From Minisyncoccota bacterium (GTDB lineage: Bacteria; Patescibacteriota; Minisyncoccia; Phycocordibacterales; CSBR16-193): DNA of 64,000 nt. Shown piece by piece: positions 26,529 through 44,175 of this stretch. Where the stretch lies: positions 330,679 through 394,678 of the forward strand of contig JBBDRA010000003.1 in the NCBI GenBank assembly GCA_040905715.1, read 5' to 3'. Under the pieces are notes generated by a model. That model saw nothing but the letters and a program-made list of their open reading frames with translations. It was not told the origin of the DNA and did no database searches. Within the stretch, counting starts at the first letter, position 1. The number at the start of each line of letters is the position of its first letter. The position numbers and the translations under genes are program-made.

Positions 26529-26604
26529 GGGCCCGTAGCTCATCTGGTAGAGCGCCTCACTTGCACTGAGGAGGTGGCAGGTTCGAGTCCTGTCGGGTCC
26601 ACCA
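26529..26604 (+). tRNA. tRNA-Ala(UGC) with encoded CCA
   Basis: GGGCCCGTAGCTCATCTGGTAGAGCGCCTCACTTGCACTGAGGAGGTGGCAGGTTCGAGTCCTGTCGGGTCCACCA. Anticodon loop CTTGCAC and a G3:U70 pair. Confidence 0.95.
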
Positions 26605-35643: not shown

Positions 35644-36390
35644 ATGATCATTCGCTATCGATTTAATTTTGCCTTTCAGATTACATTGGGAGCAGCAGCG
35701 TTCGTGGGTGTGCTACTCACTGCAAGTAACACACAGCCCAGTAGTTATCTGTGGCTTGGTGCGGGACTGATTGGCGTGGGGTGTTTTGTATTAAGCGGCT
35801 TTCGTCTACGTCGGAGAATACGAAAAGTTTACATACTTGTCGGTCATCCAAATCCGAACAAAACCTACTCTGATGAATTAGCTAATGCCTACGAACAGGG
35901 GGCTCGTGATAGCGGGTATACGGTCGTGCGTCAGGACATTTCAAAGCTATCATTTGATCCAATCCTCCATAAGGGATATGACGAGATCCAGGAACTTGAA
36001 CCGGATCTTAAGAAGGTGCAGGACAACATTTTGTGGGCCGATCACTTTGTATTGATCTACCCTAACTGGTGGTCAACAATGCCGGCGATCCTGAAGGGGT
36101 TATTCGACCGTATTTGGTTGCCCGGATTTGCGTTTAACTTCCACGCATTTGGCTGGAAAAAGCTTCTTAAAGGCAGAACCGCTCGGGTACTGATCACTCT
36201 TGACAATCATCCCTTGCTAGCTTGGATGGTCTTCGGAGATTATACAAACGAGATACAAAACGCACTGCTTGAGTTTGCCGGTATTCAGCCAGCAGATGTG
36301 ACGCAATTTGGATCTCTTAAATTCCGGTCACAGAAAAGTAAAAAACGTCTTGTCCGGAAGGCGTATCGAATGGGCCGGTGGGCACTGTAA
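35644..36390 (+). CDS. flavodoxin-like NAD(P)H-dependent oxidoreductase (MdaB/KefF-type) fused to an N-terminal 2-TM segment
   Basis: Core VYILVGHPNPNKTYS...ADHFVLIYPNWWSTMPAILKGLFDRIW. The first roughly 55 aa form two hydrophobic helices. Confidence 0.65.
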   Translation: MIIRYRFNFAFQITLGAAAFVGVLLTASNTQPSSYLWLGAGLIGVGCFVLSGFRLRRRIRKVYILVGHPNPNKTYSDELANAYEQGARDSGYTVVRQDISKLSFDPILHKGYDEIQELEPDLKKVQDNILWADHFVLIYPNWWSTMPAILKGLFDRIWLPGFAFNFHAFGWKKLLKGRTARVLITLDNHPLLAWMVFGDYTNEIQNALLEFAGIQPADVTQFGSLKFRSQKSKKRLVRKAYRMGRWAL

Positions 36391-36470
36391 TTTTGATTTT
36401 ACTGATACAAGTTGATATAGTGTAATATGTTCCTTACGAAAACACCATTGGGTCAGAAAGGAGAAACCTT

Positions 36471-36758
36471 GTGACTCTAAACTCTGATGTCGCTCAAAAA
36501 GATCGTGACACCTTAATAAAGGAGTACGAAAAAGAGCTGCGTAAGCACTTCAAGTGGAGAGCGCGGGTGCATCACGACACGAAAAACAAGTTCGAGCCCG
36601 GAGAGTATCGTGGTATCGAAAGCTGGAACAAGATGCACAAACGGCGACTTGCTCAAGACAAGAAGAAGTTTGCTGACCGCCGGCGCAGCCTCGGTCTCCG
36701 CAAGGGCGAAGACGAGGTGATCCAGAACAGGGTTATCCGAGAACTTGGCTTACGATAG
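36471..36758 (+). CDS. hypothetical small basic protein
   Basis: GTG start. 95 aa, R/K-rich. Confidence 0.4.
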   Translation: MTLNSDVAQKDRDTLIKEYEKELRKHFKWRARVHHDTKNKFEPGEYRGIESWNKMHKRRLAQDKKKFADRRRSLGLRKGEDEVIQNRVIRELGLR

Positions 36759-36906
36759 TCGCCCACGGTCAGGGAGAACTTCTCATGCAGCAACGGAATA
36801 CAGCACAGCAGACTCAAGGGTGTTGACCGGTACCCGTCGAAAGATGTGTGCCGGTTTTTTCATTTATGATACGCTATGAGTCCGGAACGTTAATTATAAT
36901 ACTAGT

Positions 36907-38004
36907 ATGTCACTCTCGATCGGAATTGTAGGACTACCAAACGTCGGTAAATCGACGCTTTTTAATGCGTTAACAAAGAAATCAGTCGATGCAGCGAACT
37001 ATCCGTTCTGCACGATCGATCCCGCAGTCGGTGTGGTGCCGGTTCCGGACGAGCGACTCTGGAAGCTCAGCGAATTTAGCAGATCAGAAAACACGCTACC
37101 GGCCGTGGTCGAGTTTGTTGATATTGCCGGACTGGTCAAAGGAGCGGCTGAAGGAGAGGGGCTTGGCAACGCGTTTCTCTCGAATATTCGGGAAGTGGAT
37201 GCGATCGCGCACGTCGTGCGTATTTTCGATGATCCCAATATTGTTCATGTAAATGGAGCGATCGATCCACTTGCGGATATCGAGACGATACACCTCGAAC
37301 TTATATTTGCCGATCTTGATACCGTAAACAAGCGACTTTCATCACTTGAACGCGATGTAAAGCGAGGCGATAAAGCTGCCGTGAAAGAAAATGTCGTGGT
37401 AGCAAAAGTAAAGGAAGCCCTTGAGGCAAGCCAGCTTGTCTCGAGCCTTTCGCTAAGCGAGGAAGAGCGCACTGAGCTTCAGGGGCTCCACCTACTTACC
37501 GCCAAGCCCATCCTTTTTGTTTTAAATAAGCAGTCAGGTGGACAGAATATCGATGAAACTGACTCGGAGAAGTTTACAAATCTCACCAATGCAATAAAAG
37601 AGATGGGGGCGCAGTATGTACTGGTGGATGCCAATATTGAGAACGAGGTAAAGGAACTTGAAGGCGAGGAAAAGCAGACCTTCCGCGAAGAGCTCGGAGC
37701 AAAAGATTCCGGATTTGATTCTTTTATACAGCAAAGTTACGACTTGCTTGGATTGATCACCTACTTCACTACCGGAGAAAAAGAGACACGAGCCTGGACA
37801 ACACACGTCGGAGCAACGGCACCTGAGGCAGGTGCGTCGATTCACTCTGACTTTCAGGACAAATTCATTCGAGCTGACATTATTCAGTGGAATGTACTAC
37901 TTGATGCAGGATCTCGCGCCGCAGCTCGTGACCAAGGACTCATTAGAACAGAAGGGAAGGAATATATTGTGCAAGACGGTGACGTGATAGAGTTTAAGAT
38001 ATAA
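36907..38004 (+). CDS. ychF: ribosome-binding ATPase YchF (Obg-family GTPase)
   Basis: G1 motif [18 protein letters not shown] and a C-terminal TGS domain. Confidence 0.9.
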
Positions 38005-38186
38005 AGCAGATTAAGCAGTCGGACAGATCGGAATCTCTTCGCCTAGTTAAAATAAACACTAAAGACCGGGGTCTTTAGTGTTTATTTGTTACGTATAGGG
38101 GTGTTGTTACCTACAAACACCCGTTTGGCTTGTTTGCTGGCGGTTCCTACTTACGGTATAGTACGAATCACAAACCACGTAGTCAC

Positions 38187-41100
38187 ATGAAGAAATACGA
38201 CCCAAACAAAATAGAAAAAAAATGGCAAAAACAATGGGAGAAAGATGGTATATACAAAACGTCTGAGCGCTCAAAGAAACCTACTCAGTATGTTCTGGAT
38301 ATGTTCCCGTATCCGTCCGGTGAAGGGCTGCACGTGGGTCACCCGAAGGGGTATATTGCCACCGACATCTACTCTCGCTTCAAACGAATGAACGGCTACA
38401 ACGTCCTACATCCAATGGGGTGGGACGCTTTTGGATTGCCGGCCGAGAATTATGCCATCAAAAACAAGACTCAACCCCAGACCGCGGTCAAAAAAAATAT
38501 CAAACGCTATAAAGAGCAGCTAGGAATGATCGGGCTCGACTACGACTGGTCACGTGAGATAAATACAACCGATCCGGAATACTATAAATGGACACAGTGG
38601 ACTTTTCTTCAGATGTACAAAAAGGGATTAGCCTACCAGTCATTCGAGCCGATAAACTGGTGTCCGTCCTGTAAAACAGGGCTCGCCAATGAAGACCTTG
38701 AGACCCGTTCGACAGACTCAGGGCAGGCGGCCGTATGCGAACGATGCGGTTCAGAAGTAGAGCAGAGACCAATGCGCCAATGGGTTTTGAAAATAACCGA
38801 CTATGCCGACCGTCTACTCAAAGACCTGACTGATCTGGACTGGCCGGAGTCGATCAAGGAGTCTCAGCGTAACTGGATCGGACGCTCAGAAGGAGCTGAG
38901 TTCAGTTTTCCGATAACCCAGAAGAACCACTATGTGCTTCTGCACGGCTTTGAAGGTTCACCTAAAAAGAACTTTTTCCCGTGGCTTGCCCGCGAGCTTG
39001 AGAAGCGCGGACATTCGGTCGAGGCGCCGACTCTACCAAAAACAAAGAATCCGGATATCGAGAAGCAGGTCCATCACGTGCTCGACACCTGCCACTTCAC
39101 CGAAAATACGATCCTTGTTGGCCACAGCCTGGGAGGAGTCGTCGGACAGATCATTACTGAACGACTCAAGACACCTATAAAGAAGATGGTCTTAGTAGGG
39201 AGTTTTACCAAACCGAATTTCTTAGATAGCAAAGATCAACCGTTCGTCGATACTTTTAGCTGGAACCTCGACCTCGAGAAAGTTCGTGATAATGCGCGAC
39301 GTATTGTGATACTGCACGATCAAAATGACCCGATCATACCTACTCGAGAAGCAGATATCCTGGCAGAAGCAACTGCCGGAGAACTTCGCTCTGTAGTAGC
39401 ACGAAAAGAGCATTTTTGCGGTCCTCGTGAGCCTGAGATCCTTAACGCATGCCTTGAAGAGGTCAGGGTGTTTACTACCCGGCCCGATACTATCTACGGG
39501 GTAACGTATATGGTCTTAGCTCCGGAGCACGCATTAGTAAATGAGCTTCAGTCAAATATAACAAACTGGCAAGAAGTAACGCAGTACCAAAAAGAAGCAA
39601 ACAAGAAAACTCAGCTCGAACGTACCGCTCAAGACAGAGCCAAGAGCGGTGTTCAGCTCGAAGGTATCTATGCTAAAAATCCGGCCAACGGCGAAGAAAT
39701 ACCGGTCTATATTGCTGACTATGTTATGACCGGCTACGGTACCGGGGCGATCATGGCAGTACCGGCGCACGATGAACGTGACTGGGAATTCGCCAAAGTG
39801 TACGGCCTGCCGATCCGGCAAGTGATACGTCCGGTGAGAGTAGACACAACAAACCCGCCGCGCAAGGGTGCCAAGGTATCTCCGCGATATGTTGTGCACT
39901 GCATCGTTAAGCATCCATCTGAAGACACCGTAGTAACTCTGCGCTGGAAAGAACATGATTGGCAAACACTGATCATTGGCGGAATAGAGAAAGGAGAGAG
40001 CCCGGAAGAAGCTGCTCGCCGCGAGATCTATGAGGAGACCGGCTACAAGAATCTAATACTTGAAGACCAGCTAGGCGACGAAGTCAGAGCGGAATTTTAC
40101 GCAGCCCACAAAGAGGTAAATCGAATCGCGTACACGAAAGCCCTCGTTTTCCGCCTTAGCGATCTTGAAAAAGACGATGTTACTGAGGAGGAGAAAGCCA
40201 AGCATGAGCCGGTCTGGACACCGATCGTTGATCTTGAAAAAACTCTTCGTCCGTGTGCCGAGCTCGACCTGTGGATACATCGTCTTAAAACAGGTAATTA
40301 CGCCTACAGCGGGAAGGGTGAGCTCGTAAACTCAGGCGGCTGGGACGGTATGAGCTCAGACCATGTACAAGACCTGATCACACAGACGGCTAGCGGAGTA
40401 AAACGGGTAACGTACCGTCTCAATGATTGGGTTTTCTCGCGTCAGCGCTACTGGGGTGAACCTATTCCGCTTGTGCACTGTGAACACTGTGGTGTCGTGC
40501 CGGTCCCGGAGAAGGACCTACCGGTTGAGTTGCCGAATGTAAAGAAATACGAGCCGACCGGAACAGGGGAATCGCCGCTTGCTGCTATCGACTCCTGGGT
40601 CAACACAACCTGCCCTGAGTGTGGAGAGAAGGCAAAGCGGGAAACAAACACCATGCCACAGTGGGCAGGAAGCTGTTGGTATTACCTACGCTATATTGAC
40701 CCAAGCAATACAAAGCAACTTGTTTCCGAGAAAAAAGAGCGTCATTGGATGCCGGTCGATATGTATGTTGGCGGTGTTGAGCACGCGACGCGACACTTGA
40801 TCTACGCACGCTTCTGGCACAAGTTCCTCTACGATATAGACGCTGTTTCTACTACAGAGCCATTCGCAACGCTTAAGAACCAGGGAATGATCGCCGGTCC
40901 GGACGGACGAAAGATGAGCAAACGTTACGGCAACATCATAAATCCTGACGATGTGATCAAACAGCACGGTGCGGACTCTTTCCGAACGTACGAAATGTTT
41001 ATGGGGCCGTTCGATCAGGGAGGTGGCTGGAACACTGATAACCTTATCGGGGTTAGGCGTTTTTTGGAAAAGGTGTGGAGACTTCAGGAAAAAGTACAAG

Positions 41101-41606
41101 ATGAAACAACTCATACCAAAACCGAAACAGACAAAAAAATTGAGATTCGAATGCATCAAACCATTCAGAAAGTGACTGAGGACATTGAAACATTCAGCTT
41201 CAACACGGCAATATCAGCCCTTATGGTGCTCGCGAATCAACTTGATAAGCAAGAGAACATTGATCGCTCTGTGTACACTGTTCTTGTCCAGCTTCTCGCG
41301 CCGCTTGCTCCGCATATGTGTGAAGAACTGTGGCTGAATGTGCTTAAAAATAAGATCTCTGTACATACAAGTGACTGGCCGGTGTACGACGAGACGAAAC
41401 TAGTGGAAGACACCGTAACAATAGTGATTCAGGTAAACGGCAAGGTTCGTGATGAGTTTGAGATCAACAAAGACATGCCCGGGGCAGAGGTTATCGCTCA
41501 AGCTAAAGCTCGAGATGCGGTTAAGCGCTGGGTAGGTGATAGCAAGGTTGCTCGTGAGATCTATGTCCCAGGAAAACTGGTAAGTATCGCAACAGATACA
41601 AAGTAG
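38187..41606 (+). CDS. leuS: leucyl-tRNA synthetase carrying two inserted domains, an alpha/beta serine hydrolase and a NUDIX hydrolase
   Basis: Class I HIGH motif (LHVGHPKGY) and KMSKS (KMSKRYGN). Insertion 1, about 38928..39467: YVLLHGFEGS...GHSLGG...HDQNDPIIP...KEH sits between RNWIGRSEGAEF and VFTTRPDT. Insertion 2, about 39840..40400, carries a perfect Nudix box GGIEKGESPEEAARREIYEETGY, after the AVPAHDERDWEFA editing-domain motif and before VTYRLNDWVFSRQRYWG. Total length is 1158 aa against a typical 800-870. Confidence 0.9.
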   Translation: MKKYDPNKIEKKWQKQWEKDGIYKTSERSKKPTQYVLDMFPYPSGEGLHVGHPKGYIATDIYSRFKRMNGYNVLHPMGWDAFGLPAENYAIKNKTQPQTAVKKNIKRYKEQLGMIGLDYDWSREINTTDPEYYKWTQWTFLQMYKKGLAYQSFEPINWCPSCKTGLANEDLETRSTDSGQAAVCERCGSEVEQRPMRQWVLKITDYADRLLKDLTDLDWPESIKESQRNWIGRSEGAEFSFPITQKNHYVLLHGFEGSPKKNFFPWLARELEKRGHSVEAPTLPKTKNPDIEKQVHHVLDTCHFTENTILVGHSLGGVVGQIITERLKTPIKKMVLVGSFTKPNFLDSKDQPFVDTFSWNLDLEKVRDNARRIVILHDQNDPIIPTREADILAEATAGELRSVVARKEHFCGPREPEILNACLEEVRVFTTRPDTIYGVTYMVLAPEHALVNELQSNITNWQEVTQYQKEANKKTQLERTAQDRAKSGVQLEGIYAKNPANGEEIPVYIADYVMTGYGTGAIMAVPAHDERDWEFAKVYGLPIRQVIRPVRVDTTNPPRKGAKVSPRYVVHCIVKHPSEDTVVTLRWKEHDWQTLIIGGIEKGESPEEAARREIYEETGYKNLILEDQLGDEVRAEFYAAHKEVNRIAYTKALVFRLSDLEKDDVTEEEKAKHEPVWTPIVDLEKTLRPCAELDLWIHRLKTGNYAYSGKGELVNSGGWDGMSSDHVQDLITQTASGVKRVTYRLNDWVFSRQRYWGEPIPLVHCEHCGVVPVPEKDLPVELPNVKKYEPTGTGESPLAAIDSWVNTTCPECGEKAKRETNTMPQWAGSCWYYLRYIDPSNTKQLVSEKKERHWMPVDMYVGGVEHATRHLIYARFWHKFLYDIDAVSTTEPFATLKNQGMIAGPDGRKMSKRYGNIINPDDVIKQHGADSFRTYEMFMGPFDQGGGWNTDNLIGVRRFLEKVWRLQEKVQDETTHTKTETDKKIEIRMHQTIQKVTEDIETFSFNTAISALMVLANQLDKQENIDRSVYTVLVQLLAPLAPHMCEELWLNVLKNKISVHTSDWPVYDETKLVEDTVTIVIQVNGKVRDEFEINKDMPGAEVIAQAKARDAVKRWVGDSKVAREIYVPGKLVSIATDTK

Positions 41607-41773
41607 GCAATTTGCCCTTTTGCCAGGTTCGTGATACTGTATAAAAGACAGAAGTAAATCTACGTCAATAGCTTACCAAGGCCTTCCTCAGTGACAGTGC
41701 TCACCGTTTGGCGGCATTGTAATATTTGACACTATTTCCTTTATATGCTTATATTATAGTACGTATTACGAAT

Positions 41774-42820
41774 ATGAAAAAACAGCAAGGAGCCACACTA
41801 TCATTCCAGCCAAAGCAGGTCACCAAACGCCTGCTTTCTGTGCTACCTGAGCGCGCTCGGGATATCCTTATTTGCCGATACGGCCTTGGGAAGAACACTG
41901 ACCGCATGACGCTTGAAGCGATCGGGACCAAATACGGTATCACCCGTGAGCGCGTTCGTCAGATCGAGAACTACGCGATACAGACGATTCGCAAGTCAAA
42001 ACAATACGAAAAAGAGCGAAAAACATTCACTGAGTTAAAGAATCTTCTTAAATCATCTGGCGGTATTGTTGCTGAGCGCGACCTCATGAACATCGTTTCA
42101 CGAAGCATAAGCGTACAAAATCATGTGCACTTTTTCCTTGTTGTAGGCGAAGAATTTACCCGTTACAAAGAAGATGAGAAATTTCATCATCGCTGGCATG
42201 TAGACAACGAGATCGCTGACGAGATCCACGAGGCGCTCGATAAGCTTTACAAAAATCTTAATGACGACGACATTATTCCTGAATCAGAGATGCTGGCTCA
42301 GTTTCTTGACCAGGTGCGCAACACATCTGAAAAATACAAAAACCATGAGATCGCTAAACGATGGCTCGGTATCTCTAAAAAGATCGATCGCAACCCACTT
42401 GGCGAATGGGGAATAGCTCATTCACCAAACATCAACGCCAAGGGAATGCGTGACTATGCCTATCTCGTCCTGAGAAAGCACGGCTCACCGATCCACTTTG
42501 AGGAGGTTGCAAAAGCTATTGAAAAACTATTTAACAAAAAGGCGCACGTTGCCACCACTCACAACGAACTTATTAAGGATTCACGCTTTGTGTTAGTCGG
42601 TCGCGGTCTTTATGCACTCAAGGATTGGGGATACGTCAGCGGAGTTGTGAAAGACGTTATTCAAAAAATACTCCAGCAGAATGGACCTCTCACAAAAGAC
42701 GAGATCATCGACAAAGTAATGAAGGAGCGCTACGTTAAGGAAAATACTATTCTGGTTAATCTTCAAAACCCGCGTTACTTTAAAAAACGCTCTGACGGGC
42801 GATTCGAGAACGCTAAATAA
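41774..42820 (+). CDS. sigma-70 region-4-like HTH protein with a C-terminal winged-helix-like domain
   Basis: N-terminal ARDILICRYGLGKNTDRMTLEAIGTKYGITRERVRQIENYAIQTIRK, as in sigma region 4.2. No regions 2 or 3 recognised. Confidence 0.5.
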   Translation: MKKQQGATLSFQPKQVTKRLLSVLPERARDILICRYGLGKNTDRMTLEAIGTKYGITRERVRQIENYAIQTIRKSKQYEKERKTFTELKNLLKSSGGIVAERDLMNIVSRSISVQNHVHFFLVVGEEFTRYKEDEKFHHRWHVDNEIADEIHEALDKLYKNLNDDDIIPESEMLAQFLDQVRNTSEKYKNHEIAKRWLGISKKIDRNPLGEWGIAHSPNINAKGMRDYAYLVLRKHGSPIHFEEVAKAIEKLFNKKAHVATTHNELIKDSRFVLVGRGLYALKDWGYVSGVVKDVIQKILQQNGPLTKDEIIDKVMKERYVKENTILVNLQNPRYFKKRSDGRFENAK

Positions 42821-42918
42821 TCAATTCTCATTCAAAAAACCACATTTCCTCAGAGGGATGTGGTTTTTTCTATGTAGAAAAAGTGTGAAAGTTGGTGATT
42901 TACTACAAGCTCGGTATA

Positions 42919-44175
42919 ATGACCTCACCTATGATTGATCAACTGCTCTCATTTATTAGTACTCAATACGGTGAATCTGCCGGACTCGTCGCAGAGGTAT
43001 TGCTCGATACCTCTTTTATCTGGATTCCTGTTATCCTCATCATAGGATTTTGGCAGGTCTGGATCCAGTATATTCACGCATACTTTATCAGCAAACAAGT
43101 ACCTGTCCTACTCGAGATACGCATTCCCCGAGAGGTCTCACGCACACCGGCCGCTATGGAGATGGTGTTCAATACGCTCTACCAGAAGAGTCAGCCTCAA
43201 TCGTTTGCGGAGGCGTACTGGGACGGCAAGGTGCCGCCGTGGTTTTCTATAGAATTGGTTTCACTTGGTGGGTATGTCCATCTCTATATCTGGACCTGGC
43301 AAAAATTCAAAAATTTGATCGAGTCACAACTTTACGCTCAGTACCCAAGTATTGAAGTGGTTGAAGCAGAAGACTACTCGACCAAGATCACGAATGATCC
43401 GGAAAAGTTTAATATGGTCGGTTTCCAATGGACGTTTACAAAGCCGGTCGCATACCCCATCAAAACATATATAGACTACGGATTAGACAAGAAGGCTGAC
43501 AAAGAGGAGCAGAAAGATGACCCGCTTACATCAGTACTTGAACTACTCGGGTCACTTAAGCCCAAGGAGCAACTTTGGTTCCAGATCGTGATTCAGGCTC
43601 ACAAAAAAATGGGCATGAAGGACGGTTATGTTTTCCCGCGCCCTGATTGGCGAGCCGAAGCTGAGAGGGAGGCCGGGAAAATACGAGACCAATATTTGGT
43701 CGACAAAGAGAAAGGGCTGTACATGCCTATAACAGAAGCAGATATGGACTCGATCAAGGCTATTCACCGCAGCCTGGACAAGCAAGCCTTTGATGCTGTT
43801 GTGCGAACACTCTATGTTGCTGAAGGTGATAACTTCGATACGGGTACGATCGCCGGACTTCTCGGAGTGATGCAACAATTTAATTCAAACAACATGAACG
43901 GTTTCCGGATCAACTGGAAAACCGACTTCAGCCACCCGTGGAAAGACTTCCGAAATGTTCGCCGACGTAAGAAGGAGCGTCAATACCTCGATGCATGGCG
44001 TCGGCGATCCTACTTTTCTGAACCATACAAGTATTTCAAACAAAAGCCGATCGTTCTTACCACAGAAGAACTTGCAACGATCTTTCATATACCCGGAACA
44101 GTGGTTCAGACTCCAACACTCAACCGAGTAAGTTCACGAAAAGGAGAAGCTCCATCAAACATTCCAACAGAATAA
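42919..44175 (+). CDS. hypothetical protein with 1-2 N-terminal TM helices
   Basis: 427-aa ORF with no recognisable catalytic motif. Confidence 0.45.
   Translation: MTSPMIDQLLSFISTQYGESAGLVAEVLLDTSFIWIPVILIIGFWQVWIQYIHAYFISKQVPVLLEIRIPREVSRTPAAMEMVFNTLYQKSQPQSFAEAYWDGKVPPWFSIELVSLGGYVHLYIWTWQKFKNLIESQLYAQYPSIEVVEAEDYSTKITNDPEKFNMVGFQWTFTKPVAYPIKTYIDYGLDKKADKEEQKDDPLTSVLELLGSLKPKEQLWFQIVIQAHKKMGMKDGYVFPRPDWRAEAEREAGKIRDQYLVDKEKGLYMPITEADMDSIKAIHRSLDKQAFDAVVRTLYVAEGDNFDTGTIAGLLGVMQQFNSNNMNGFRINWKTDFSHPWKDFRNVRRRKKERQYLDAWRRRSYFSEPYKYFKQKPIVLTTEELATIFHIPGTVVQTPTLNRVSSRKGEAPSNIPTE

Follow-up and report, generated by a model that had tools for sequence, protein, structure and literature searches.

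A leucyl-tRNA synthetase with predicted serine hydrolase and Nudix hydrolase domains set into its editing domain

The stretch of DNA described here, 64,000 nucleotides of contig JBBDRA010000003.1 (the window), carries on its forward strand a leuS gene, which encodes leucyl-tRNA synthetase (LeuRS). Two additional segments lie within the CP1 editing domain of this protein, and each has the features of a complete enzyme: insert 1 resembles the small alpha/beta serine hydrolases YdeN and RBBP9, and insert 2 is a Nudix hydrolase by profile and predicted fold. The elements of the gene are listed below in order along the forward strand (+), with residues numbered from the ATG at 38187.

38187..41606 (+): leuS open reading frame, 1139 residues plus TAG; bacterial-type LeuRS with two embedded hydrolase domains
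38187..38900 (+): N-terminal half of the catalytic Rossmann fold and Zn-ribbon region, to the first CP1 strand (Pfam tRNA-synt_1, residues 12-231)
38331-38342 (+): HIGH motif, here HVGH, residues 49-52; histidines retained in 119-120 of 121 homologs
38868-38882 (+): RNWIG, residues 228-232
38901..39467 (+): insert 1, YdeN/RBBP9-type alpha/beta serine hydrolase, residues 239-427 (189 residues), identified by PF06821, AlphaFold2 and Foldseek
38943-38948 (+): oxyanion residues H253-G254; HG in 87 of 88 homologs
39126-39128 (+): nucleophile Ser314 in GHSLG (G312-H-S314-L-G316); Ser in 87 of 88 homologs
39318-39320 (+): Asp378; present in 80 of 88 homologs
39327-39329 (+): Asp381; present in 64 of 88 homologs, aligned with RBBP9 Asp138
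39411-39413 (+): His409; present in 87 of 88 homologs
39468..39827 (+): CP1 editing core (PF13603, residues 424-553, 193.5 bits), aligned with Thermus thermophilus LeuRS 243-363
39474-39491 (+): T-rich editing motif TTRPDT, residues 430-435
39768-39782 (+): HDERD, residues 528-532, with the universal editing residue Asp532
39828..40298 (+): insert 2, Nudix hydrolase, residues 548-704 (157 residues), identified by PF00293, AlphaFold2 and fold search
39978-40046 (+): Nudix box GGIEKGESPEEAARREIYEETGY, matching every specified position of GX5EX7REUXEEXGU
40095-40100 (+): X-loop aromatic residues F637-Y638
40110-40124 (+): family motif K642..N645-R646
40299..41129 (+): C-terminal rest of CP1 (YAYSGKGELVNSG...), then the second catalytic half; aligned with T. 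thermophilus LeuRS 376-578 and then from 638 onwards
40428-40454 (+): WVFSRQRYW, residues 748-756
40911-40925 (+): KMSKR, residues 909-913; KMSK residues retained in 118-121 of 121 homologs
41130..41603 (+): anticodon-binding helical domain and C-terminal tRNA-binding domain (Pfam Anticodon_1, residues 982-1102, 81.2 bits)

The reading frame is single and uninterrupted from 38130 to 41606 on the forward strand. An earlier reading of this DNA, made without database searches (the sequence-only reading), had reported one continuous frame of 1158 residues. The continuity stands, but the length needs adjustment: 1158 residues are obtained from an upstream TTG at 38130, whereas the ATG at 38187, given in that reading as the start, yields 1139. 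The ATG is the likely start of translation, because homologs share that start, at which the protein begins MKKYDPNKIEKKWQ, and because the identical gene call on an independently assembled contig also has 1139 residues.

Profile scores identify the protein as a bacterial-type LeuRS. The NCBIfam equivalog TIGR00396 (leuS_bact) matches the whole protein with 1006 bits against a cut-off of 548.4, whereas the archaeal model leuS_arch reaches merely 206 bits against a cut-off of 648. T. thermophilus LeuRS (1h3n) aligns at E = 8e-217 in four collinear blocks, and the anticodon-binding and C-terminal region (residues 982-1139) aligns with it up to residue 874. All of the canonical elements named in the sequence-only reading were located: the synthetic motifs, the editing motifs, and the anticodon-binding C-terminus. 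The editing motif AVPAHDERDWEFA is present and includes D532; residues T430, T431, R432, T435 and D532 are identical in 121 of 121 homologs, and D434 in 120. Missing is the leucine-specific domain: T. thermophilus residues ~579-637 (~60 residues) are without a counterpart just before KMSKS (40890-40925, residues ~903-910). At the level of its sequence, the gene is thereby established as the working LeuRS of a Candidatus Paceibacterota bacterium, a member of the Candidate Phyla Radiation (CPR; Patescibacteria), with its synthetic, CP1 editing, and tRNA-binding parts intact.

Alignment with T. thermophilus LeuRS places both inserts within CP1. Insert 1 takes the place of a three-residue hairpin turn (T. 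thermophilus 240-242), five residues ahead of the T-rich motif, and insert 2 that of a twelve-residue loop (364-375) after the HDxRD editing motif. The sequence-only reading had put the hydrolase before and the Nudix domain after the editing region, a placement that this alignment does not bear out. It had also given the second insert about 185 residues; the actual figure is about 157, and the last ~45 residues after the Nudix domain (YAYSGKGELVNSG...), before VTYRLNDW, are native CP1. Comparison with related LeuRS proteins, which had been suggested in the same reading, finds the inserts cleanly delimited and variably present across CPR bacteria and DPANN archaea. One relative (L083), with 73% identity over the first 255 residues and 56% over the C-terminal part, is without exactly both inserts.

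Insert 1 matches the Pfam family Ser_hydrolase (PF06821) over residues 249-400, with 37.5 bits against a cut-off of 22, and the same domain is found in 88 of 120 LeuRS homologs. The nearest solved structure by sequence is Bacillus subtilis YdeN (1uxo; E = 2e-9), and human RBBP9 is next. An AlphaFold2 model built from an alignment of 30 homologous segments has a predicted local distance difference test score (pLDDT) of 92.9. Foldseek matches this model to YdeN 1uxo (template modelling score, or TM, 0.80; E = 1e-13) and, likewise at TM 0.80, to RBBP9 (2qs9 and 7oex).

Insert 2 matches the Pfam family NUDIX (PF00293) over residues 569-686, with 43.4 bits against a cut-off of 21.1; a sequence search against solved structures returns generic Nudix enzymes. 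The AlphaFold2 model (31 homologous segments) has a pLDDT of 95.3 and displays the alpha/beta/alpha Nudix fold. Nudix-box residues are retained in nearly all of 85 homologs: G598 in 81, E604 in 83, R612 in 81, E613 in 84, E616 in 82, E617 in 82, and G619 in 83. The family has a signature of its own, consisting of R567, W587, W592, K642, N645 and R646. Positions +17 and +18 past the Nudix box are taken by F637 and Y638, each aromatic in 80 of 82 homologs; the diadenosine polyphosphate (ApnA) hydrolases are not the top structural match. The best characterised structural neighbours are RppH, DIPP1/DDP1, the Rv2985 diadenosine polyphosphatase, Ndx1 (which acts on diadenosine hexaphosphate, Ap6A), and hydrolases of diadenosine tetraphosphate (Ap4A), all of them enzymes that act on polyphosphate chains.

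The sequence-only reading thus recognised both folds, the YdeN/RBBP9 type and the textbook Nudix box, and its expectations that profile searches and structure prediction would recover them and that the catalytic residues would be intact are borne out by these results. It is close to certain that both inserts are independently folding hydrolases, with their catalytic residues intact, in surface loops of CP1. Mean identity among homologs is 42% for the hydrolase and 37% for the Nudix domain, as compared with 67% for the LeuRS core. The inserts add to the canonical LeuRS functions rather than substituting for them, because the synthetic and editing residues also are invariant.

Several trivial explanations for this architecture were considered. 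One is that it is an artefact, either an assembly chimera or separate genes masked by a frameshift. At first sight the GenBank annotation could hint at separate genes, and this is the sole point in favour: the records for the gene (MEX0673080.1, MEX0924324.1, MEX2564052.1 and MEX1087019.1) describe an 890-residue 'alpha/beta fold hydrolase' (38934-41606), which starts at Val250 inside insert 1. These records are without the first 249 LeuRS residues and are named after the insert; this form reflects a late start call at Val250, a misannotation caused by the hydrolase insert. Against an artefact stand the uninterrupted frame; 13,552 nucleotides of the window that are 100% identical to a separately assembled Logan contig (SRR27977661); the same sequence on four GenBank contigs from metagenome-assembled genomes (MAGs) of Candidatus Paceibacterota; more than 100 homologs from different studies with the same collinear architecture; and an even guanine-plus-cytosine content across the gene (0.44-0.53 in 500-nucleotide windows). 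The identical Logan contig, the four GenBank contigs and the collinear homologs together rule out a chimera or split gene, and the chance of any such artefact is negligible.

Two further candidates were rejected. An intein or other selfish insert is ruled out: a Pfam scan of the whole protein to E = 0.1 returned no intein, Hint or LAGLIDADG family, and both inserts are fully covered by complete hydrolase and Nudix folds. A known variant of CP1 that contains no hydrolase fold is likewise ruled out, by the profile, structure-prediction and fold searches.

The inserts belong to a larger, modular family of synthetases. The best 120 homologs are all long LeuRS proteins, each with one or both inserts, and the named lineages among them are all CPR: Paceibacterota, Woesebacteria, Moraniibacteria, Vogelbacteria and Parcubacteria. 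Both hydrolase and Nudix domains occur in 48, the hydrolase alone in 32, the Nudix domain alone in 33, and the hydrolase with an additional module of another kind in seven. Distances between conserved anchors jump at four sites along LeuRS, here called A to D. Site A lies ~20 residues before CP1, between '...DYADRLLxDLD' and 'LDWPxSIKExQRNWIG'; sites B and C are the positions of the hydrolase and Nudix domains described above; and site D lies between the SRQR motif and KMSKS.

Each site accepts more than one arrangement. Homologs of 1300-1560 residues (P0003, P0004, P0012, P0013 and others) carry one or two extra Nudix domains at site A, to give up to three per LeuRS; these are paralogs of the site-C domain (per-domain E ~1e-24 to 1e-45). 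Tandem hydrolases occupy site B in P0100, with 429 residues between RNWIG and TTRPDT, and in L038, with two GxSxG elbows. At site C, seven homologs (P0051, P0055, P0059, P0082, P0084, P0102 and P0106) have instead an unrelated module of ~100 residues with no Pfam match and no Nudix box. Site D, between the Zn-ribbon region and 'RETNTMPQWAGSSWYY', holds a HAD_2 phosphatase-type domain in P0013, P0070, P0098 and P0099, and in P0007 and P0086 a module of ~130 residues follows 'HCPKC'; from its motif 'IKTIETR', our guess is that this last module has an ASCH/PUA-like fold.

Parsimony on a neighbour-joining tree of the LeuRS core (120 sequences) requires at least 12 changes for the hydrolase and at least 23 for site C. 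As judged from these sequences, CPR bacteria and DPANN archaea have a modular LeuRS family in which hydrolase modules were acquired and discarded repeatedly at four sites.

The archaeal membership emerges from GTDB species genomes, which were scanned for the hydrolase domain with an alignment of a six-sequence subset as query. Relatives of the domain were found in 359 species genomes. Among the best 80 loci, ~54 lie inside LeuRS and ~24 are free-standing genes of ~185-235 residues with 30-39% identity. Fifteen of the LeuRS-embedded loci come from MAGs labelled Pacearchaeota, Woesearchaeota or Nanoarchaeota (L002, L004, L005, L007, L008, L010, L011, L013-L016, L038, L049, L050 and L053). One of these, on Pacearchaeota MAG contig JACOYM010000074.1 (L005:33-5777), has genes for Alba and an archaeal tRNA-splicing endonuclease directly upstream of LeuRS; its LeuRS is of the bacterial type (leuS_bact, 921 bits; leuS_arch, 215 bits). 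Judging by this archaeal gene context, DPANN archaea also use a bacterial-type LeuRS with the hydrolase insert, and the DPANN contigs as a group imply transfer between CPR bacteria and DPANN archaea.

The Nudix domain has a history of its own with synthetases. When 1.84 billion cluster representatives were searched with a profile built from the insert, 163 proteins were found at E <= 1e-30. The best 150 representatives comprise ~112 LeuRS proteins (whole or fragments), two prolyl-tRNA synthetases (ProRS), 31 short proteins (<=260 residues), and five longer proteins of other kinds, of which two have a pair of Nudix domains. One ProRS (L092:2762-4693; 643 residues, with ProRS-C_1) has the Nudix domain inserted at residues 390-533, between the anticodon-binding and C-terminal domains, with 178.8 bits against the insert profile; a free-standing copy of the Nudix gene lies two genes upstream.

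Gene context was evaluated for a sample of 11 free-standing members of the family. Three (P0135, P0156 and P0248) are each directly upstream of leuS. The neighbourhood of P0135 is syntenic with the window, and there the Nudix domain is a separate gene directly upstream of leuS; P0156 adjoins an insert-free leuS, and so represents a split form. A fourth member, P0206, is directly after argS and two genes before a gene for a protein like isoleucyl-tRNA synthetase (IleRS). Two others (P0161 and P0189) are within two genes of proS. The seventh, P0160, is part of a cluster on one strand (L085:482-8549) that contains, in order, metS, a gene without an assigned family, TatD, the Nudix gene, genes for proteins of 47 and 149 residues, a YfbR-like HD nucleotidase, a gene for a 217-residue protein, a second, unrelated Nudix gene, and an insert-free leuS; the 149- and 217-residue proteins have no Pfam match. 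The remaining four (P0191, P0195, P0222 and P0230) have no synthetase nearby.

In sum, four of the 11 free-standing members are directly next to an aminoacyl-tRNA synthetase (aaRS) gene (three leuS, one argS), six are within two genes of one, and seven are in an aaRS cluster. Binomial estimates, which rest on an approximate null model and on a small sample with some members from related lineages, give P = 2.5e-6 for the three leuS adjacencies and P = 1.6e-3 for the four adjacencies to any aaRS. As a control, a class I aaRS was found within 3.5 kb of free-standing YdeN-like hydrolases at just two of 24 loci. This Nudix family is therefore quite likely to be linked to synthetases in function, because the family is inserted at two LeuRS sites and in ProRS and occurs in addition as a separate gene beside aaRS genes.

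A different hydrolase is set into another synthetase at L093:4594-7498, where an IleRS-like class I enzyme (1184 residues by the source's call; the locus stops before the end of the gene) contains an inserted His_Phos_1 domain. This is the IleRS-like gene that lies two genes downstream of P0206 and argS. Decoration of synthetases with hydrolases may be more general among these organisms.

In the window itself, leuS is flanked (35644-38004 and 41726-44175) by genes in the order Flavodoxin_2-like, YchF GTPase, leuS, Sigma70_r4/HARE-HTH protein, DUF8128; this order is retained in a relative that has its Nudix domain as a separate gene directly upstream of leuS. The window contains a single tRNA gene, tRNA-Ala(TGC), at 26529-26604. 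Elsewhere in its 64 kb neither insert family recurs, and no further Nudix box occurs.

What might two hydrolases do on a LeuRS? The explanation we favour, at about even odds (0.5), is that the modules are responsible for on-enzyme clean-up of the side products of aminoacylation. The Nudix domain would probably remove a nucleotide by-product that both classes of synthetase have in common. Its substrate would be an Ap4A-type dinucleoside polyphosphate or a related nucleotide derived from the adenylate; such dinucleotides arise on synthetases when the aminoacyl-adenylate reacts with ATP in place of tRNA. The serine hydrolase would cleave alpha-aminoacyl esters, and so add another deacylase to the canonical CP1 site. 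With both activities tethered to LeuRS, they would be at the source, and one-to-one expression would be ensured in a genome of minimal size.

The two assignments differ in strength. Ap4A comes mainly from aaRSs and is split by Nudix enzymes into ATP and AMP (PMC13627108). According to Dunn et al. 1999, as cited in PMC5389931, ApnA hydrolases are marked by a conserved tyrosine in the X-loop, ~17 residues past the Nudix box. An Ap4A-type substrate is favoured by analogy, because the structural neighbours of insert 2 act on polyphosphates and because aromatic residues F637 and Y638 are conserved in the X-loop; the specific assignment is tentative, and falls somewhat short of even odds. The sequence-only reading had put forward hydrolysis of diadenosine polyphosphates or of misactivated adenylate as a possible role of the inserts, and for the Nudix domain that idea gains support from the gene-neighbourhood and fusion evidence.

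The role suggested for the serine hydrolase comes from RBBP9. Valacyclovir is an L-valyl ester. RBBP9 is presented as a valacyclovir-activating enzyme in a title that PMC7730578 cites. Its catalytic serine also captures Leu/Ile, Met, Phe, Tyr and Trp, provided that the alpha-amine is free, and the authors of that work allow for amide, ester or thioester substrates (PMC8866121). Ester hydrolysis, also proposed in the sequence-only reading, gains support by analogy with RBBP9 biochemistry. The aminoacyl-ester step is weak, because the amine ligand of RBBP9 is not conserved in the sequence alignment and because free-standing relatives are without a link to synthetases; as an analogy, the assignment is doubtful.

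A bolder version of the clean-up hypothesis may be formulated. The LeuRS editing domain of CPR bacteria and DPANN archaea would be a multi-enzyme platform for quality control, shared across the bacterial-archaeal divide by gene transfer. On this platform the serine hydrolase would provide a second site for post-transfer editing or deacylation, with a fold new to aminoacyl-tRNA proofreading, and a Nudix enzyme dedicated to synthetases would degrade a nucleotide that derives from them, for example Ap4N, misactivated adenylate, or a modified tRNA end. The outcome would be a novel class of proofreading or sanitising chemistry coupled to aaRSs. Taken as a whole, this version is rather unlikely.

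Several observations weigh against on-enzyme clean-up. Both substrate assignments rest on analogy and association. LeuRS is not known to be a major producer of Ap4A. The closest structural match of insert 2 is the uncharacterised protein 2azw, and Nudix enzymes of other specificities score almost equally. Co-divergence of the Nudix domain with the LeuRS core is weak (rho 0.08). The free-standing member P0191 adjoins fpg/MutM, which would suit a MutT-like role. In insert 1, the residue that pairs with the alpha-amine ligand of RBBP9, Glu108, is Gln351, and it is Arg in 62 of 88 homologs, in a loop where the alignment is gapped and uncertain; the specificity of insert 1 may therefore differ from that of RBBP9. 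Neighbourhoods of the free-standing YdeN-like hydrolases have no enrichment for aaRS genes, and the sole recurring neighbour is an AddA/UvrD-type helicase-nuclease, at four related loci. Finally, repeated gain and loss makes the modules look dispensable for LeuRS itself.

Many of these observations would be expected if the inserts were hitch-hikers: small, active housekeeping hydrolases that fused, in streamlined CPR and DPANN genomes, into permissive loops in and near CP1 of an essential, constitutively expressed gene, and that act in nucleotide sanitation or salvage, on generic esters, or on other general substrates unrelated to leucylation. Such an origin would account for the unrelated types of module at four sites (Nudix, serine hydrolase, HAD_2, and the modules of ~100 and ~130 residues); for the IleRS-like protein with its His_Phos_1 insert; for the frequent gains and losses counted by parsimony (12 and 23 changes); for a Nudix domain that barely co-diverges with the core; and for free-standing hydrolase relatives that have no aaRS linkage. 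Some free-standing Nudix genes are beside fpg, another Nudix gene or unrelated genes, and the P0160 cluster, with TatD, the YfbR-like HD nucleotidase and a second Nudix gene, resembles nucleotide housekeeping. However, a random permissive scaffold does not predict that ~112 of the top 150 Nudix representatives should be LeuRS. Nor does it predict that one Nudix family should recur with synthetases in three genetic forms, with statistics far from chance and clean control loci. Hitch-hiking is on balance unlikely for the pair of modules, and of the alternatives weighed here it is the one to be taken most seriously; for the serine hydrolase the case against it is weaker, and there it keeps its full weight.

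Two other explanations assign the modules a role on LeuRS itself. The hydrolases might repair or license tRNALeu before charging. In that case the Nudix domain could remove a 5' triphosphate in the manner of RppH, Np4N or NAD caps, or a toxin-added 3' pyrophosphate, a modification of tRNA that exists; the serine hydrolase could strip aberrant acyl groups, and the HAD domain of relatives could remove terminal phosphates. The geometry is suggestive: CP1 receives the 3' CCA end of tRNALeu, sites B and C are in CP1, and site A is ~20 residues before it. All of the identifiable modules (Nudix, serine hydrolase and HAD) are hydrolases able to act on terminal groups, and the Nudix family is also found in ProRS, another tRNA-binding enzyme. 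Position and the similarity of fold to RppH are nonetheless the sole basis for this idea; no RNA-binding signature was identified in the Nudix insert, and the free-standing Nudix members would be without a tRNA-binding scaffold. We regard it as improbable. More improbable still is that the inserts are non-catalytic, like known inactive sensors with a Nudix fold, and serve to sense ligands or as purely structural parts, through which LeuRS is regulated or protein contacts are made. The boxes of inactive Nudix sensors are typically degenerate, whereas full Nudix-box, Ser-His-Asp and HG sets are retained here in nearly all homologs despite ~60% divergence. The precedent on the other side is that PMC5389931, a review of the Nudix clan, documents Nudix folds with non-enzymatic roles, and some homologs do exchange the site-C Nudix domain for the ~100-residue module, which has no catalytic signature.

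The sequence-only reading knew of no precedent for either fold inside an aaRS. As far as publications go, this stands: in a literature search of incomplete coverage, no published description was found of LeuRS, or of any synthetase, with an embedded Nudix or alpha/beta-hydrolase domain. In public sequences, however, the architecture is common, and all 120 of the best LeuRS homologs have an insert. Such sequences have been public for years, for example a Woesebacteria GW2011 protein in UniRef, and automated labels such as 'leucyl-tRNA synthetase/predicted esterase YcpF' already exist. The architecture is real, widespread and apparently undescribed.

Few enzymes have been studied as thoroughly as the aminoacyl-tRNA synthetases, and added domains have been a classic route to new biology in this family, including editing, signalling, and Ap4A metabolism. 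In this case, two additional domains with intact catalytic residues form part of an essential synthetase, and their folds were not found linked to synthetases in the literature searched. Proteins of this design are common across CPR bacteria and DPANN archaea, both of them among the least understood microbial groups. The Nudix family behaves like a Rosetta-stone partner of the synthetases: it is fused into LeuRS at several sites and into ProRS, and also exists as a gene of its own beside leuS. It gives a concrete hypothesis for how minimal cells handle adenylate-derived by-products such as Ap4A. If the functional link is true, it would represent a new kind of synthetase-coupled clean-up or proofreading, would explain many mis-annotated genes, including the GenBank 'alpha/beta fold hydrolase' at this locus, and would put on record that archaea share a bacterial-type LeuRS. 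Even as mere passengers, the modules would represent a striking accretion of domains in an essential enzyme.

Comparison with known systems places each part of this protein. Bacterial LeuRS proteins (T. thermophilus 1H3N/2BYT; Escherichia coli 4AQ7) have the same order of domains: HIGH, Zn region, CP1, KMSKS, anticodon-binding domain, and C-terminal domain. In contrast to T. thermophilus LeuRS, the protein described here has a 189-residue hydrolase for a three-residue turn, a 157-residue Nudix domain for a twelve-residue loop, and no leucine-specific domain.

Insert 1 shares with YdeN (1UXO) and RBBP9 (2QS9, 7OEX) a lidless, minimal alpha/beta-hydrolase fold of ~190 residues, with a GHSxG elbow, a Ser-Asp-His triad, and the HG pair. 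It differs from them in that it is embedded in another enzyme, has 22-25% identity, and, as far as the sequence alignment shows, does not conserve RBBP9 Glu108; YdeN itself is uncharacterised. Insert 2 shares the Nudix fold and complete box with RppH, with the Ap4A/Ap6A hydrolases (Aquifex 3I7U, Ndx1 1VC8, lupin 1JKN), with Rv2985/MutT1, and with Enterococcus faecalis 2AZW. With the ApnA hydrolases it may also share the X-loop aromatic position, as judged by position in the sequence. Unlike these Nudix hydrolases, to which it has <=24% identity, insert 2 has its own family signature and is mainly an internal domain of LeuRS.

The principle of an enzymatic module on or beside an aaRS is familiar from the ProRS INS domain and YbaK, from AlaX and DTD, and from IleRS with an acetyltransferase (NCBIfam 'ileS_w_GNAT'). 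As in trans-editing systems, split and fused forms coexist: a Nudix gene beside an insert-free leuS in one genome, and an embedded domain in others. The known editing modules have dedicated editing folds, whereas neither a Nudix nor an alpha/beta-hydrolase fold was found in that role in the literature searched. A further difference from those modules is that the canonical CP1 editing site is kept here, alongside the two additional hydrolases.

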